In this document: positions 11,206-19,600 of the stretch, in pieces | Numbering within the stretch: the stretch's first letter is position 1 | How the letters are laid out: every line of letters begins with the position of its first letter | Position numbers and translations under genes: made by a program | The notes under the pieces: generated by a model | What the model was told of the DNA's origin: nothing | Databases searched by the model: none | Seen by the model: only the letters and a program-made list of their open reading frames with translations | DNA from: an uncultured Planctomycetaceae bacterium | GTDB lineage: Bacteria > Planctomycetota > Planctomycetia > Isosphaerales > Isosphaeraceae | DNA length: 64,000 nt | Direction of reading: 5' to 3' | NCBI GenBank assembly: GCA_963833985.1 | Contig: CAWIAD010000002.1 | Span: forward strand, 5,408,001 to 5,472,000

Positions 11206-12114
11206 ATGGCTCGGATCACGTTGCGCGCGGATCGGTTCGCCACCGAGGCGAGCCGCCAGGAATACCAGCAACTTGAAGGCGGCAACATTCTCTACTTCCC
11301 CACGGCGCCGCCGCTGGTCACGGCCGAGGAACGAACGTTCCTGGTCACCCAGCGGCAGATCGACGGCGGTCTGTTCAAGAACATCAGCTATCGGCCGATG
11401 GAAGACCGGCTGCGGGGCATTGACCAGAAGGACACGGCGAAGCTCAGGCGTGTTCACGAAACGATGCGTGCATTCTCCAGCCGAGCCGCCGGCTTCATGG
11501 AGTCGTTCCTGGGCCACTACGCGACGAGCTGGAAGATCGACTTCGCGAGCTTCCGACCCATCGAGGAGCAGGGCCGCAAGGCTTCCTTGCATGCGCACAA
11601 CGACCTGCTTCACTTCGACTCGTTCCCGACCCGGCCCTCGCACGGCGACCGGCTCTTGCGGATCTTCGTGAACATCCACCCCGAGCGGTCGCGGGTCTGG
11701 CTCACCTCGGACCCGTTCGAGGCGCTGGCGACCCGGTTCGCCGGCAAGGTGGGGCTGCAACGGACTCCGCGTCTGCTGGATACCTGGAAGCGCGCGGCCG
11801 TGAAGCTGGGCGCGGGAGTCGGCTTACCGGTGATCGATCGGCCGCCCTACGACGCCTACATGCTCAGGATCCATCATTCCATGAAGGAAGACGCCGCCTT
11901 CCAGGCGACTTGCCGCAAGGATCGCTGGGAGTTCCCTGCCGGCTCGGCCTGGATCGTCTTCACCGACGGCACCAGCCACGCTTGCCTGAGCGGCCAGTAC
12001 ATGCTGGAGCAGACCTTCATCATCCGCCGTTCCGGGCTGACCAGTCCCGAGCTGGCGCCGATCTCGATCCTGGAACGGATCGCCGCCTACCCCCTCGCCC
12101 GCCAAAGCGCCTGA
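11206..12114 (+). CDS. Kdo hydroxylase family protein (KdoO-like)
   Basis: KNISY, SFRP, LLHFDSFPTRP..GDRLLRIFVNIHP, YDAYML.IH..MKED..FQ, WIVFTD..SHACLSGQYMLEQTF. Confidence 0.8.
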   Translation: MARITLRADRFATEASRQEYQQLEGGNILYFPTAPPLVTAEERTFLVTQRQIDGGLFKNISYRPMEDRLRGIDQKDTAKLRRVHETMRAFSSRAAGFMESFLGHYATSWKIDFASFRPIEEQGRKASLHAHNDLLHFDSFPTRPSHGDRLLRIFVNIHPERSRVWLTSDPFEALATRFAGKVGLQRTPRLLDTWKRAAVKLGAGVGLPVIDRPPYDAYMLRIHHSMKEDAAFQATCRKDRWEFPAGSAWIVFTDGTSHACLSGQYMLEQTFIIRRSGLTSPELAPISILERIAAYPLARQSA

Positions 12115-12230
12115 GACCGAGATCGGGTCGCTGCCGGGACGGCGTTTCCCGGACCTAAGCAGATCCGCAGAAGTCTTTGGACAGGATTGCCGTTCGCTTG
12201 CCCAGGGCTGAGAGCCCTGCCTGGCCGCTC

Positions 12231-12370
12231 TCCTCGTGGGGTACGATTCCAATCGTGCCTTCCCATTCTCGTGGGCTACGATTCCAATCGTGCCTTCCCA
12301 TTCTCGTGGGCTACGATTCCAATCGTGCCTTCCCATTCTCGTGGGCTACGATTCCAATCGTGCCTTCCCT
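12231..12370. repeat. 4 x 35-bp tandem REP-like palindromes
   Basis: (TTCTCGTGGGCTACGATTCCAATCGTGCCTTCCCA)x4, with the same GTGGG..ACGATTCCRATCGTG core as the 6.7-kb cluster. Confidence 0.9.
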
Positions 12371-12563
12371 GATCCATCAGATCGAAGAAGTGGCACGAAG
12401 TAGGGTCGAGGTGTGGCGCGGTGGGCTCGAGTCGATGGCTCGGCTGGGCCTCGTTTCCACACCCCGCTCATCAAACTGGATCGGCGGTTTTCCCGCATCC
12501 AGCTTTCGGACAAGGCTTGTCTCATCGGTTGAGTTCACACGTTCGCTCACGAAACCATCGCGG

Positions 12564-15500
12564 CTAGGTTCGTTGCAGCTGGTAAAGATGCAACTCCTGG
12601 TGCAGGTATCTGTCAGGGTAGCGTCTGAGCCCCTGACCCGGCACCTTGAACTTCGCACACAACCACTGACGTACCCGGTAGCGGACGTGGTGGTTGACTT
12701 GGCGATAGGCTGGGCTCACCGTTCCGATGCGAAAATAGTTGGACCAACCGCGTAACTTGCGATTGATCCGACCAATCTGCATCTCGACGTCCTGTCCAGT
12801 GGTCTGGCGCGTCGTCATCGCACTGATCTCGCTGCACAGCCGAATGATCTTCTTCCGCGATGGGCGTGACCCTATGTAGGATCGGCCCGTTCGTCGGTCG
12901 TAGTTCCGGCCGAGGGTATAACCCAGAAAGTCGAACGTCTCCTCAGGCAGGTGGCACAGCCGCGTCTTGGTCTCGTTCACCGTTAACTTCAGCCTGGACA
13001 TCATCTTCCGCATCACCGTCATGGCCTCTTCGGCCGTGCCGCGACAGCAGATGACGAAGTCGTCCGCATAGTTGACGATTCGCGCGACCAGACGCCGCTC
13101 GTGTCCACCAGTCTTCCATCCCTTCACAAATCGTCGCATGTAGATGTTGGACAACAATGGTGAGATCACGCCCCCAACAATGTTGCGAACTACGTTGTTG
13201 GGGGCCTTTCTCAAAAGGGGACGGACTGACCCGATACACGATGCGGACCTCCTGCTCGTCGATCTCGACCTTCTTCACCAAGGCCCGAACCACCTCCCGT
13301 CGCGTGGCCCAGTCCGGCTCTTGCAACCCTTGCGAGACGCGACGTGCGAACTCCTCCAACTGACCGATCACCAGTCGCAATTCCGCCTCTTGGGCGGCCT
13401 CGCCGATTCGTTGTCGATGCTCCTCCGCCAATCTCGAGAGGCGCGTCCTTGCCGCCGAGATCCGGGGCTCGAACTCCGATTTGTCGAGCAACCCGTCGCC
13501 GTAAGCATCGATTAATCGAGAAATCATCTTTTTCACATTATTTATCAATTTGCCGAGATGCTCCACCTCCTGATTCGGCCCGCCCTGGGCACCCTGCAGC
13601 CGCCGCTCGTACTCCTCCCGGACCCGCTCCGGCTCGGACAGGAGACCTCGTAAGTCCTCCCAGACGGCAGCGTCAAGGATATCGGTGCGGATCTGCTTGT
13701 TCCAGCAGAGGCGCTGCCCGCCGAAACGATAGGCGTCAGAGCCCGTGCAACGGTAGTACGCGTAGCGGACCCTACCCTTGCCCTCGAACGCGGCTCGGCT
13801 CGTCGGCTTGCCGTAGCAGCCGTAGCCGCAGCGCTTGCAGACGACCAGGCCCTGGAGCAGATATCGGCCACCGCCGGGCCGGTCGCGACGGCGTTGCCGG
13901 TTCTCTTCAAGCTGGGCCTGGACAGCCAGGAAGAGGTCTTCGCTCACCAGCCCGGGGACTTCAATGAAGATTTGATCTTCCGAGGATGTATCAACCCGTG
14001 AGACCGGTCGCCGGGAGTGTTCGGGGCGGCCTCGCTGCGGGCGGAGGCGTTGAGGTTTGAACTCACCTGAGCGCGTCTTGCCGAAGGCCGCGGTCCCCTT
14101 GTAGGCAGGGTTCTTGAGGATCAACCAGACCGTCGCGCGATCCCAGGCCGATTTCCCGGTCCGCGTCGGGATACTGTCGCGCCGGAGGCGTCGGCACACC
14201 TCGCCGATCGAGCACCGTTCCTGACCCACCCATTCGAAGATCTTCCGCACGACCCGGGACTCTTCAGCGAGGACCTGATAACGCGCCTCGCCACCTCCCT
14301 CGTGCTTGCCGATGTAACGGTAGCCGTACGGCGCGCCGCTGAGGACGTTGACCGAACCGCGGCGGGCGGCGTGTTGCTTGCCCCTGCGGCAACGCTCCAT
14401 GATCTTGGCGCGCTCGTATTCCGCGATCATTCCCTGGACCTGAAGCAGCAGGTCGGCTTCCGGACTGCGGCCGACGGGGTTGCGCAAGAAGACGACCTCG
14501 ACACCGCACCGGATAAGTTCCTCAAGGATCAAGACCTGATAGGCATACTTGCGTGAAAGTCGATCCGGATCGAGCATATAGAGGCGGTCGATGGCTCCAG
14601 CGGCGGCTTGGTCCCGAAGTCGCTCGAGTGCCGGTCGGGCCAGGATGTAACCGCTGACGCCGTCGTCCACGAAGTGCAGTTCGGGCTCGCATTCCAAGCC
14701 ATCAGTGGCGATCCGCTGAGTGACCGCCTCGAGCTGGCTGGCGATCGTGTCCTCCTTCTCCTGCTGCTCCCCCGAAACCCGGGCGTAGAGCGCCACGCGG
14801 AGATTGTCCGTGATCATGGTTTGTCAAACCCCCCCGACCTTGGACTGGATAGTGTGGACCACAGTCGCGTGGTTGCGGCTGGGTCGCGGCCGATCCAGGC
14901 GCTGCGAAACGACCGGGATCAAGACCTGATATGCACGCGCGATCAATTGCTCCTGAAGCCGAGTGAACTCGAAGTGGCGGGTGACAGGAGGACTGAACGT
15001 GGGCCTCCGTGGGGACGTGATCATGTCGACTCCTCCTCTCCGAGAGCGCGGCCGCCAGCCTGCCTTGGATCGGGATCGAGTCGGGGCTGCCATCCGTGCC
15101 CGTACTTCGGTCGAAGCCGCGATCTGGAAATGACAGAGTCAGGAATCAGGGACGATTTTGCAACATTGTTGGGGGCGTGATCGGTGCACCTTGCGGTGTA
15201 CCCATCCCCTGGTCTTTATTCCGGGTCGTTCGATGGCGCTGCCCCTTCCCGTCGGTTTCTTCCACCGGTGTTTCCAGCCACATCTTGATCAGCCGCAGGA
15301 CGCGACCGTCGCTGATGCGCCGTGACGCCGATTTCATTAACTCGGAATGGGGTATGCTATCGAAATATCCAGATAAGTTCGCGTCCACCACCTCGGTGTG
15401 CCCCGTCTTGAGCAGCCGTTCGACTTCGCGGACGGCGTCCAGGGCGCTGCGCTCCGGGCGGTAGGCGTGTTGTTCCGGCTCCAGGTCGGCCTCGAAGATC

Positions 15501-15877
15501 GGCTCCAAGACCAGCACCGCAGCCATCTGCACCACACGATCCTTGATGCAAGGAATGCCCAGCGGCCTTTGCTTGCCATCCCCTTTGGGGATGTACACGC
15601 GCCGCACCGCCTGGGGTTGATACGTCTCCTTACGAAGTTGTTCCGCCAGTTCGTCCAGCCATCGTTCCTTCCCGGACGCCTCGATGTCGGCGAAACTCTG
15701 GCCGTCGATCCCCGGCGCGCCGCCGTTGGCACGGCAGCGTTCGTAGGCGAATCCCAGAACGTCACGTCGATAAATCTTGTCGTACAGGACGTAGAACCGA
15801 TAGTTGGGCGCGTTCTTCGCTTTGGTGTGCAACGCCGTCTGCAACTTCCCGACCTTCAGTGGAGGTGATAGACTCAC
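12564..15877 (-). CDS. ltrA: Group II intron reverse transcriptase/maturase, interrupted at 13164-15182 (432 aa if rejoined, no endonuclease domain)
   Basis: N-part 15877-15179 (RRVYIPK, RPLGIP, DRVVQ, GTPQGAPI). C-part 13163-12564 (SPLLSNIY, YADD, FDFLGY, LRGWSNYF). The two parts join in frame at GATC. Confidence 0.92.
12943..14817 (-). CDS. Large serine recombinase (resolvase + recombinase + Zn-ribbon + coiled coil)
   Basis: ALYARVS catalytic Ser, DDGVSG..RPAL, DRLSR, APYGY, ILKNPAYKG, LLQGLVVCKRCG, YYRC. The ORF runs past the element end at residue 551. Confidence 0.95.
   Translation of the reverse strand: MITDNLRVALYARVSGEQQEKEDTIASQLEAVTQRIATDGLECEPELHFVDDGVSGYILARPALERLRDQAAAGAIDRLYMLDPDRLSRKYAYQVLILEELIRCGVEVVFLRNPVGRSPEADLLLQVQGMIAEYERAKIMERCRRGKQHAARRGSVNVLSGAPYGYRYIGKHEGGGEARYQVLAEESRVVRKIFEWVGQERCSIGEVCRRLRRDSIPTRTGKSAWDRATVWLILKNPAYKGTAAFGKTRSGEFKPQRLRPQRGRPEHSRRPVSRVDTSSEDQIFIEVPGLVSEDLFLAVQAQLEENRQRRRDRPGGGRYLLQGLVVCKRCGYGCYGKPTSRAAFEGKGRVRYAYYRCTGSDAYRFGGQRLCWNKQIRTDILDAAVWEDLRGLLSEPERVREEYERRLQGAQGGPNQEVEHLGKLINNVKKMISRLIDAYGDGLLDKSEFEPRISAARTRLSRLAEEHRQRIGEAAQEAELRLVIGQLEEFARRVSQGLQEPDWATRREVVRALVKKVEIDEQEVRIVYRVSPSPFEKGPQQRSSQHCWGRDLTIVVQHLHATICEGMEDWWTRAASGRANRQLCGRLRHLLSRHGRRGHDGDAEDDVQAEVNGERDQDAAVPPA
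13164..15182 (-). mobile_element. Minimal serine-recombinase integrative element (2015 bp plus duplicated GATC core)
   Basis: Perfect 23-bp terminal inverted repeats GATCACGCCCCCAACAATGTTGC at 13164-13186 and 15160-15182. Carries two ORFs. Removal restores the RT. Confidence 0.9.
14824..15024 (-). CDS. 66-aa hypothetical protein of the recombinase element
   Basis: Strong RBS GAGGAGGAG before the ATG at 15024. Stop lies 6 nt before the recombinase start. Confidence 0.7.
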   Translation of the reverse strand: MITSPRRPTFSPPVTRHFEFTRLQEQLIARAYQVLIPVVSQRLDRPRPSRNHATVVHTIQSKVGGV

Positions 15878-16534
15878 GCCAATCTCCCGGCTGTCTGCCG
15901 CTTGTTGCGTTGACCTTGAACCAAGGCCCCTTCCCTCGACCGGAGTTACCCGGCGTCGACGGTACTACGGGCCTCTCCGCCACCCCAGGCAGCCCGGCCG
16001 GTCCCTCGCGGGCGTCCGGTTGAGGGTCACGCGCCCTCACCGCTTGGGGTTTCCCGTGTTGTGTTGATCTCCGTGTGCCGACATGCCGTCGTCAATACCC
16101 CGGTGGCCCGCTGGGTTCTGATCGCTCGTGGGGCGGCCTATTCCAACCGTTTCCCTTTCATCCCCAGCGACGGCGGCCTTCCCCATATTCCAGCAAGGTC
16201 GGCGACCACATTGGACTTTTCGAGGCCTGCTCAACGTTCACTCGCGTTACGGCCTGTCGGTTCGCTGCATCGCCAAGCGACACATCTGTCTCGAAGGCTC
16301 CGACGGTTTCGTCTCCTCCACCGCCGCTCCGATAGCTACCGGCTGGAGCGACCCAGTTGCCGGGTGGGAGTTACACCCACTGAAGACCAACACCTTTCCA
16401 CGGCGCACTGGAATCATGTCCCAAGAAGAGCGGCCTCCCGGCCATCCAGGATCGCATCAACCTGCTGAATGCCTGTCAAAGAACTATTGCGAACCTGCTT
16501 AGAGCGGTTATCACTCGGATCGCAGACTGAGACC

Positions 16535-16597
16535 GGGGGCAGGCATTCCTGCCTGCCGGAGCAGGCCTACCCTGGCAGACAGGAATGTCTGCTCCCC
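16535..16597. repeat. Second REP-like inverted doublet
   Basis: GGGGGCAGGCATTCCTGCCTGCC ... GGCAGACAGGAATGTCTGCTCCCC: two internally palindromic arms in inverted orientation. Confidence 0.7.
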
Positions 16598-16691
16598 TTC
16601 CAGGATCTCAGAAACCGCCTGCAACCCGTCAGAAAACCGCCCTAATGCGTTGGCCGGACCAGCACGGCTTTCTTGACCGGGACGCGGGCCT

Positions 16692-19600
16692 TCATGAGCG
16701 TCCGGGCGCGGGGGCCGCGGCCACCCTGGGCCGCGCCACGGGCACGACCCTGGGCCTGGGCTTCGGCTTGGGCCTGGGCGCCGGGGCCACTGGCCTGGGC
16801 CTTGGCTTTGGCTTGATTACGGGCCTGGCCGTCGACCTGGGATGAACCGCAACCGGCGCAGCGGACTTGACCTGGGGAGCCGGTGCGGTCGTTAAAATCA
16901 TCTGATCAATGGTGGCCGTCGCCGACGTCGCGTAATTGGAATCGCCCACGTAGACCGCGTGAACCATGTAATTGCCGGCGGTCAGAGTTGAGATCGTCAG
17001 GCTGGCCTTGCTTCCCGAAACCGGCACAGCGCCGATCATGCCGAACTGATCGTAGAAGACCACCGTTCCCGTCACGGGAATCGCCCCCAGCGACGAGGCA
17101 TTCACGTCCGCGGTGAACGTCACCGGTGCGCTGATCGCGGAGCGCAGGATCGCTCCTTCCAGCAACGACGCGGTGGGTGCCCGCTGCACCGTGTAGGTGC
17201 CGCCCTGGTACGAGATCGTGTAGTCCGTGGCGGCGGCGCCCGAGACCGAGATCGGGTAGCTGCCGGGCAGGCTGTTGACGTTGGCCGTGGTGGACAGGCT
17301 AGGCAGGACCGGCAGGCTGGCGGCCGTGTCGCCGTTGACCAGCCCGACGTAGCTGGCGCTCAGGCTCGGCCTGGTGCCGTACCCCTGGCTCGTGTTGTTG
17401 GCCTTGATCAGGAGGGGCGTCGGGGTGACGGCCAGCGTGGCGGATACGAACGTGAGCAGATAGTTCGGGGAGGCGAGCGTGCCCGTGCTGGGCGTGAGCG
17501 TGTAGGTTCCCACGTGGCTGGTGGTGAGGGCTGTCGTGGTGAACGAGGGCGCTCCGGCGACGCCGCTGTTTGCCAGGTCCTGCCCCTGGATGAACCCGGT
17601 CAGCGTGTACCCGAACGTGGGATTGGCAGCGCCGTAGGCCCGGCTGGCGTTCTGCGCCGTGATCGTCAGCGTGGCCCGGGTGACTGTGAACGTGCCCGTC
17701 TGGAAATTCGCGATGTCGAGCAGGTAGTTCGGGTTGGCGATCGTGAGCGTGCCCAGGGCCGCGGTGATCGGGTAGGTCCCCACCGAGTTGCCAATGTTGA
17801 CCTGTGTGCTCAGCGCGGGGGCCCCGGATAAAAGTGGATCCGGATCAGTGGCCGAGATCGCGGTCTGGGGCGGATCTTCCCGCACCAGGCTCCATCCCAG
17901 CCTTGGGTTTGGCGTGCCGAACGACCGTGAGACGTTGCTGGCCACCACGATCAGACGGGCCGAGAGCACCGTGAGCGTGGCGGGTTTCGTCGCGATCTGA
18001 AACGTATAGTTGCTCGCCGCCAGCGTGCCCTGGCTGATCGTGATGCCATACGTACCGACAGGACTGTCCGCCGTGGCTGTCGTGAACAAAAGCGCGGCTC
18101 CGGTCACGCCGCCGGTCGTCGCGTTCTCGCCGTTGGCGTAGCCGGTAATCGTGGACGGCAGGGGGATCGGGTTGGGAAGGCCGTAGTAGCGGCTGAAGTC
18201 GCTGGGCGTGACGGTCAGGGTCGCCTGTGTGATTTGCAGGGTCGCCGCTCCAGGCGCGAACGCGAAGGTGTAGTTCGTGGACTGGAGCGTTCCCTGGCTG
18301 GGAGTCCCGGCATAGCTGCCGACGGGGCTGCTCGCCGTGGCCGTGGTCGTGACGCCGGGCGTGCCTTTCACGTCGCTGGTCGCCTGCGTCTCGCCGTTGG
18401 CGAAACCGCTGATCGTGTACGATTGCGTGGTGGCCGTGGACGAGCCGTAGGGGCGGCTGGCGACCACGTCCGAGACGGTCAGCAGCACGGGCGTGACATT
18501 GAGCGTTCCGGACTGGAACGTGAACGTATAATTCAGCGCCCACAGCGAGCCGACCTGAATCGTGATCGCATAGGTCCCGACCGGGCTGGTGAGGTTCGCC
18601 AGCGTGGACACGCTGGGCAGCCCCGACAGCACCGCTTGATCCTGGCCGTTGACAAAGCCCGTGTAATCAAAGTCGGCCAGGGTCATGCTGGCCAGCTTGG
18701 CAGGATTGGCCTGGCCATAAAGACGGGTCAGGTCGGACGACGGCAGGTTCAGGGCGATCGTCAGAGGCGCCTGGGTGACCGCCAGCACGCCCCCGCGGAA
18801 CAGCGTCGGGTCCAGGGTGTAGTTCGCATTGGCGTAGGCCAGCGAGCCGGGCGCGATGTTGATTGCGTAATTGCCCACCGGGCTGGCGGGGCCGGCCGCG
18901 GTGGTCGTGAAAACGGGCGTGCCAGAGAGCAGCGACTGGTCCAGGAAATCACTCCCCACGAACCCCGTGATCCTGTACGTGAACGCCGGGTTCACATCGC
19001 CGTAGCTCCGGCTCTGGCTGACCGCCGTCACGACCAGGGGCGCCGATGTGATCTGGAGCGTCGCTGCTCCGGGTGCGAACGCGAAGCTGTAATTCGTGGA
19101 CTGGAGCGTTCCCAGATTGGGCGTGGCGGCATAGTTCCCCACGGGAGTGCTCGGGGTGGCCGTGGTCGTGAGGCCGGGCGTTCCCGTCACACCGCTGGTC
19201 GCGAGCGTCTGCCCGTTGGCGAACCCGGTGATCGTGAACGACTGCGTGGTCACCGTGGACGAGCCGTACACCTGGGTCGCAAGCACATTCGAGACCGTCA
19301 GTTGCACGGGCGTGACGTTGAGCGTACCGGTCTGGAACGTGAACGTGTAGTTCGGTGCCCGCAGCGAGCCGACCAGGAGAGTGATCGCGTAGGGCCCCAC
19401 CGGACTGGTGAGGTTGGCCACTGTGGAAACGCTGGGCGTGCCGGTCAGCACCGAGGGCATATCCTGATTCTCGCCGTTGACGAAGCCCATGTAGAGGAAG
19501 TTGTCCTTGGTCAGGCCGGTCAGGTCCGGATTGGCCTGGCCATAGGGCGCGTCAGGCTGGTGGGTGGCAAGTTGAGGGCGATGGTCAGAGGCGCCGGGAG

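Follow-up and report, generated by a model that had tools for sequence, protein, structure and literature searches.

A 2-kb serine recombinase element in the reverse transcriptase gene of a planctomycete group II intron, and its relatives at the same codon in other genomes

A stretch of 64,000 nucleotides from an uncultured Planctomycetaceae bacterium (assembly GCA_963833985.1, contig CAWIAD010000002.1, positions 5,408,001 to 5,472,000), referred to below as the window, contains a mobile element of about 2 kb that interrupts the reverse transcriptase (RT)/maturase gene of a group II intron; the element, its relatives and its probable mode of movement are described here. Both the intron and the element are read from the reverse strand. 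The element occupies positions 13164..15182 (2019 bp with both copies of GATC, net insert 2015 bp) and is bounded by a perfect 23-bp inverted repeat, the outermost bases of which are GATC at 13164-13167 and 15179-15182, exactly where an earlier note made from the sequence alone had placed them. The left end (15160..15182) consists of the 23-bp repeat with the crossover core (AT of GATC), and the right end (13164..13205) of the repeat at 13164-13186 and an inner inverted 14-bp copy at 13192-13205; the family consensus of the element end is ATCACGCC(C/T)CCAACAATGTTGC. The RT gene is split at the Ile codon of QGAP-I-SPLL into a 5′ half (15179..15877), which ends in ...GTPQGAPI and matches positions 1-127 of Pfam RVT_1, and a 3′ half (12564..13163), which starts with SPLLSNIY, contains YADD and matches RVT_1 positions 121-205 and GIIM. 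As had been predicted, removal of the 2015 bp gave a frame for an RT of 432 amino acids (aa) that reads GTPQGAPISPLL and has YADD and one terminal stop. The read-through is considered real, as an RT of 432 aa is also encoded by two empty copies of this intron that occur naturally elsewhere in the genome; the window RT halves differ from these by 1 and 3 residues, and Pfam RVT_1 and GIIM were both matched on an empty copy. The proposal that excision restores the RT is accordingly true by sequence, and intact empty alleles exist; the excision event itself was never seen.

The host intron extends over 12400..16408 (1994 nt without and 4009 nt with the insert; ends GTGCG...CTAC) and has all of the expected parts, namely the structures of domain 1 (D1) and of domains 5 and 6 (D5, D6), GUGYG...AC ends and the RT/maturase gene. 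The D1 region (16242..16382) matched Rfam RF02003 with 98.9 bits against a gathering score of 49, and D5 and D6 lie at 12400..12520, with D5 at about 12472-12505, an AGC triad and a D5-D6 fold z of -3.78. RF00029 was matched with 41.2 bits by an empty intron copy and not by the window copy, whose D5/D6 region has private changes; a private two-base change in its D5 keeps the pairing. The 5′ end of the intron was the same in 11 genomic copies with differing exons, and the 3′ end in 10 of the 11, which were all that were readable.

The full content of the 2015 bp is a large serine recombinase, a small open reading frame (ORF) of 66 aa and a third coding frame without a start (15021..15182), and cargo, mobilisation and conjugation genes are absent; the recombinase and the small ORF had been named before as the only contents, and the start-less frame had been overlooked. 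The recombinase body (13164..14817) has no internal stop and contains the catalytic, recombinase, Zn-ribbon and coiled-coil regions, with matches to PF00239 (Resolvase), PF07508 (Recombinase) and PF13408 (Zn-ribbon) and the catalytic Ser15 in YARVS. An AlphaFold2 model of it (mean predicted local distance difference test score 77.5, predicted template modelling score 0.51) had serine integrases as the top Foldseek matches (E 1e-21). Among named recombinases, those nearest to it come from Planctomycetota, with 97% for one in a Planctomycetaceae assembly and 82% for one in Singulisphaera acidiphila. The promoter scan gave no sigma-70-like site. The 66-aa ORF (14824..15024; FEPxRL...AYxxLxP) is conserved in the alignment, and its motif was detected in 116 of 133 left ends; it had no Pfam match and only unnamed ESM Atlas clusters with a score of at most 0.88. 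Because of its position next to the recombinase, its product is a candidate recombination directionality factor.

The reading frame of the recombinase does not end within the element. In the window, the recombinase ORF (624 aa) leaves the right end and continues out of frame through the 3′ half of the RT gene to 12943, and among 105 intact recombinase homologues with a located right end none has its stop within the element. When the two ends were joined in silico as a circle, in a model that left out 14 loci of named cultured Proteobacteria, the recombinase frame continued in 78 of 79 cases over 33 codons or more into a related peptide, the consensus of which is AxNNVAKxxLxxxxxIxRxxLRPxYGxGF. 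The frame at 15021..15182 is this C-terminal tail, which joins the body in frame only across the circle junction; the circle form of the window recombinase would have 603 aa, with a stop codon that overlaps the start codon (ATG) of the small ORF, an overlap present in 28 of the 79 modelled circles. Stops interrupted the tail frame in 2 of 121 unique, unjoined left ends, compared with 39-113 in the other five frames, the synonymous fraction was 0.71 in the tail frame compared with 0.18 and 0.10 (70 ungapped ends, which are related sequences and not independent), and third codon positions were the most variable in the tail frame. These values confirm that, judged by the pattern of substitutions, the tail frame alone is under coding, purifying selection. 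No conserved start codon for it was found in the left-end alignment, where the frame starts at the crossover, and neither the ESM Atlas nor Pfam gave a name for the tail. The 5′ half of the window RT enters the element in another frame and stops after a few codons, so the simple route to expression of the tail would be a circle or a tandem, and a circular intermediate is implied because the frame is under selection and is in frame only across the circle junction. In one ORF from the databases, P0007, the tail follows a recombinase C-terminal end. At the level of sequence, the comparisons show the attachment site to be within the recombinase gene, which integration splits, the integrated form comprising a recombinase with a target-derived tail at one end and a conserved, start-less tail of about 35-55 aa at the other. 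The integrated recombinase need not be inactive, since its predicted catalytic, recombinase, Zn-ribbon and coiled-coil regions remain and only a short tail is lost.

The genome contains 11 copies of the element, which are 99.95-100% identical and have the same ends except for the crossover bases of two off-target copies. Nine of the 11 copies occupy one and the same GATC in copies of this intron, seven oriented as in the window and two inverted; nine of 11 complete intron copies are interrupted in this way, and the remaining two are the empty ones with an intact RT. Of the off-target copies, one has AT as its core, within CATG, and the second combines AT on one side with TT on the opposite one and has, in addition, a 1-bp insertion that frameshifts the recombinase; AT is common to both sides in the other 10 copies. 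A second RT gene in the genome, 35% identical, is unoccupied, and both genome contigs begin at an element-RT junction. With filled, inverted, empty and off-target alleles side by side, this genome is a good test case. The off-target copy at G000:C1:1741772-1743790 (L210) adjoins a frame with a weak HNH_3 match, and its target has CCGCAAG at the same distance from the core as in the RT site. At G000:C2:2147541-2148825 (L213), the 3′ half of the RT gene in an inverted composite contains about 1.3 kb of further inserted sequence. One 81% element remnant was also found, with its right end within an older intron relic that is 87-94% identical (G000:C2:4627293-4628492); the older relic holds a diverged element end, and therefore the association of element and intron predates the current burst.

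For comparison across genomes, 79 genome loci were fetched from the best 80 of 548 matches, 80 metagenome loci from the best 80 of 577, and three viral loci. Element ends were located by a weight matrix (a plain inverted-repeat search missed divergent members), and each flank was tested separately for an RT junction at the QGxx-(I/L)-SP codon. Loci without a scored end or with less than 32 nt of flank (8 of 79 genome and 6 of 80 metagenome loci) are excluded from the evaluable ones, and loci with G labels were kept out of the family counts on account of possible overlap with earlier loci. Counting the flanks of homologues in this manner, as the earlier note had suggested, placed the RT junction precisely at this codon in 51 of the 71 genome loci and 58 of the 74 metagenome loci that could be evaluated (109 of 145 when pooled), and the RTs concerned share as little as about 30% identity with that of the window. 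When a motif test of somewhat greater stringency was applied to 158,000 random positions, it gave 161 positives. Counted per genome, a homologue occupied this RT codon in 41 of the 57 that could be evaluated, in several phyla and with cultured-isolate records among the 41, which bears out the idea of a hyperparasite of group II introns. According to record titles, the carriers include Planctomycetota, Chloroflexota, Acidobacteriota, Proteobacteria and one spirochaete. The ends are conserved and about 2.0 kb apart across the family, and insertions were forward and reverse in a ratio of 24:25, as expected because the donor site is symmetric. RT-targeting members are spread over the whole recombinase tree, down to about 45% identity, and small clades have other targets. 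The target logo tracks those bases that are invariant in the QG..SP.L.N codons. A weak symmetry is present in the RT motif as well, and it has C positions in common with the element arm. The preferred target of the element is thus the QGxx-(I/L)-SP codons in the RT genes of group II introns, and sites that resemble them are used now and then.

Among the other targets, a sister clade (L057 and L061, with L062 grouped with both) is inserted in a conserved motif of transposase genes of the IS256 family (Mutator family in Pfam), and another is found in the catalytic D5 of group II introns (L034, judged by eye, and L067:2619-2650, where a partial, sub-threshold RF00029 match ends at the element). 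Also occupied are a sulfatase gene (L002) and a Fic gene (L027). Further clades (L049, L095, L117, L145, L146 and L158) have recurring non-RT junction peptides that resemble other transposase motifs; those of L049, L146 and L158 we take to be IS5-like and other transposases. At three loci of one genome (L006, L010 and L012) the ends adjoin on one side a palindrome like those of repetitive extragenic palindromic (REP) elements, and the other flank of L012 is RT-like. In genome G007, elements that are 98-99.7% identical to each other are inserted in different RT genes and in one non-RT site, and therefore the element moves as DNA, independent of the intron. Genome G010 has one empty and two filled alleles of one intron. 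The copy on plasmid pDK1 is annotated merely as fragments of a "recombinase family protein".

These findings are best explained by an element that lives off a conserved, multi-copy and dispensable target in another mobile element. It is probably an autonomous parasite of the size of an insertion sequence (IS), moved via a circle by a large serine recombinase that it encodes itself. It would excise as a circle with a palindromic donor attachment site (attP), circularisation would complete the recombinase gene (603 aa in the window form), and the circle would integrate at the RT motif of another RT gene in either orientation; precise excision would leave the RT intact. Which way recombination runs would depend on whether the tail is present and on the 66-aa protein, the candidate directionality factor; for this part of the scheme the case is evenly balanced.

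Several observations weigh against this interpretation. P0007 has one codon more at the junction than the simple model predicts, and a full-length natural protein of about 600 aa is absent among 234 listed tail-bearing proteins (from the best 120 of 183 and the best 150 of 432 matches), of which P0007 has the body before the tail and the others that were checked lack it. Of the two products of excision that the earlier note had proposed to look for, the empty allele is represented by the two intact introns of this genome, and the circle junction was found neither in the genome nor in 162 loci. No joint at the element ends was present among those listed for four low-coverage public runs, and these runs are uninformative on excision, as the best holders contain at most 0.37 of the words, the contigs are short and of low depth, and no listed piece spans the stretch. 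The best-ranked sets of loci lean towards close relatives, about one quarter of the evaluable loci have no RT junction by the motif test, and none of the three viral-contig loci has one. In addition, the core dinucleotide is the same on both sides in 31 of 49 loci with both RT halves and differs in 18. Strict serine-integrase chemistry does not predict unequal cores, which would call for mismatch tolerance, later recombination or chimeric assembly.

Other explanations were weighed against the same data. A domesticated, reversible DNA switch that gates maturase supply and intron mobility in the manner of skin in sigK, as the earlier note had also considered, is very unlikely. Precise excision would restore the frame, neither RT half is decayed, and with most of the complete intron copies interrupted the activity of the intron is probably reduced. 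However, the undamaged halves are explained by recent insertion, given the near identity of the copies; the element is multi-copy, in both orientations, off-target in two of 11 copies and frameshifted in the recombinase of one of these, related clades lie in IS256-family transposases, a Fic gene and intron D5, and the empty copies already provide RT. On these grounds the notion of a switch is not supported. It is also improbable that a relaxed, multi-targeting recombinase transposon hits RT genes merely through their abundance and a loose match to the motif. The off-target copies here, the sulfatase and Fic genes elsewhere and the unoccupied second RT gene are in keeping with it, whereas the concentration of three quarters of the evaluable loci at one codon of widely diverged RTs largely refutes it, as do the spread of RT-targeting members over the whole tree and a logo that follows invariant codon bases. 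That the arrangement is an artefact of assembly is extremely improbable. Both contigs of this genome and six of nine copies of one G007 intron break at the junction, and at 17 loci, some of them probably chimeric, the same RT half is found on both sides; misassembly of the window locus alone is nevertheless unlikely because the same junction occurs at nine different loci, which have unique flanks, and it recurs in 41 genomes with cultured-isolate records among them.

A further possibility, compatible with movement as DNA, is that the element also hitch-hikes: the two empty copies would provide RT in trans for the retrotransposition of a 4.0-kb RNA of intron and element, which would have produced the seven forward copies. 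At a silent position of the intron, some 15 nt away from the crossover, the seven forward copies have C and the two inverted and two empty ones have A (1 in 330 if independent), the forward copies are at different exon junctions with precise intron ends, the family overall has no orientation bias, and domain IV is the part that tolerates cargo best according to PMC3898094. On the other hand, the same source states that cargo of more than 1000 nt can sharply lower efficiency, the 7:2 orientation bias is by itself non-significant (p = 0.18), and the linkage of the single nucleotide polymorphisms (SNPs) is explained equally well by gene conversion from one filled copy, a better target allele also giving linkage. 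Variable sites among the seven copies number nine in the 1994 nt of intron and two in the 2015 nt of element (two-sided p = 0.065); the element part is less variable and therefore looks younger. All four combinations of element and intron SNPs occur, and these mosaic haplotypes therefore indicate gene conversion or mixing of consensus in assembly. On balance hitch-hiking is conceivable, though we incline somewhat against it.

The intron of the window is itself inserted in a host repeat resembling REP elements or transposable elements of the miniature inverted-repeat type (MITEs). One arm of this repeat, with 35-bp tandem units, lies at 12155..12399 and is represented at 41 loci in the genome, and the other arm lies at 16409..16506, is represented at 31 loci and has inverted termini with the first; nesting at the window is thus three deep, with the element in the intron and the intron in the repeat. 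A gene of the Kdo hydroxylase family (11206-12114), without relation to the element, adjoins the host repeat. Just beyond the repeat on the other side is a long hairpin (16524-16607), for which scores of Rfam miRNA families were weak and at chance level, and related sequences are present at 12107-12143 and 17236-17272.

Recombination between copies may also rearrange the hosts. At G007:C63:111591-128989 (L192, L176), two inverted copies about 13 kb apart are flanked by reciprocal hybrids of two different introns, and a third locus of the same genome (L165) has one native intron pairing, with halves 99.9% identical to those of the hybrids. Inversion between the element copies that swapped the RT halves explains this arrangement, provided that the assembly is right, and the 17 loci flanked on either side by one and the same RT half may be further inversions or chimeras. 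Taken more broadly, a wide undescribed family of minimal serine-recombinase parasites of mobile-element motifs can be envisaged, in which a C-terminal module present only in the circle sets direction, members in introns may in addition be carried along by retrotransposition as a cargo of 2 kb, and hybrid RTs arise where copies recombine and intron halves are exchanged; this full picture is put forward tentatively, as one that falls a little short of an even chance. If true, this would bring a further layer into the ecology of mobile DNA, with the element as a specialist in disabling the RT genes of group II introns across many phyla; part of the many truncated RT annotations may be due to it. 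It would also represent a new way for a serine integrase to control direction, by completion of its own gene on excision, which to our knowledge was known before only from tyrosine integrases. The family offers more than 100 natural pairs of enzyme and site, with a donor that is palindromic and a target defined by a motif, which are useful for studying and engineering integrase specificity, and recombination between copies would provide a route for shuffling RT and ribozyme halves among introns.

No description of the arrangement was found in a literature search that ran without ISfinder and most subscription journals, so its absence is unproven; the family is not described in the accessible parts of PMC9203015 and PMC4853749, nor is the arrangement in those of PMC10083194 or, by term search, in its text supplements. 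According to the last of these (Durrant et al. 2022, PMC10083194), multi-targeting large serine recombinases such as Cp36 use several sites per genome with relaxed specificity, and DUF4368 is present in 63% of the multi-targeting clade, whose target genes are many and unrelated. The window recombinase has no DUF4368 match, in contrast, and about three quarters of the evaluable loci are at one codon of one gene family. Serine-recombinase elements within coding sequence, precise excision of which restores the frame, are exemplified by skin/SpoIVCA in sigK, SP-beta/SprA in spsM and fdxN/XisF. Elements of the skin type are single-copy, in one orientation, in a host gene and developmentally timed, whereas the present element has 11 copies in two orientations in the gene of a selfish intron. 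The IS607 family combines the size of an insertion sequence with serine chemistry, as here. Its enzymes are small, have an inverted domain order with an N-terminal DNA-binding domain and little target specificity, and are often accompanied by TnpB; the enzyme here has 545 or more aa, the catalytic domain first and a specific target, and the element has no TnpB.

The gene layout has a parallel in the tyrosine integrase of myxophage Mx8, the C-terminus of which changes on integration. In the "suicidal" integrases of the SSV type (SSV1, pTN3, pT26-2), attP lies in the integrase gene, integration splits N- and C-terminal parts, and direction control has been proposed; these are tyrosine recombinases from archaea only, and the split inactivates the enzyme, as given in PMC7253208. 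The likeness is in an attachment site inside the recombinase gene, which is split on integration; the difference is that a bacterial serine recombinase is involved here, and that its integrated part keeps the canonical domains and loses a short tail. In mode of movement the closest systems are the clostridial transposons Tn5397 (TndX) and Tn4451/Tn4453 (TnpX), in which one large serine recombinase integrates and excises with a 2-bp core, as is predicted for the present element, and for Tn4451 and Tn5397 a circular intermediate has been described. The present element has copies at multiple sites, and catalysis by its recombinase is predicted. Tn5397 and Tn4451 have an intact recombinase gene and non-palindromic ends. 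Transposons of this type are 6-21 kb long and carry resistance and transfer genes, whereas the element here is 2 kb, cargo-free and perfectly inverted at its ends, its recombinase gene is split by the attachment site, and its target is another mobile element. The preferred target of Tn5397 is a conserved coding motif as well, a sequence within Fic-domain genes (PMC4430133). Tn5397 carries an intron, whereas the present element is carried by one. The element works like Tn5397/Tn4451 and has the gene layout of the archaeal suicidal integrases, yet fails defining features of each, and it is a real recombinase-driven transposon with an unusual target and an unusual gene layout.

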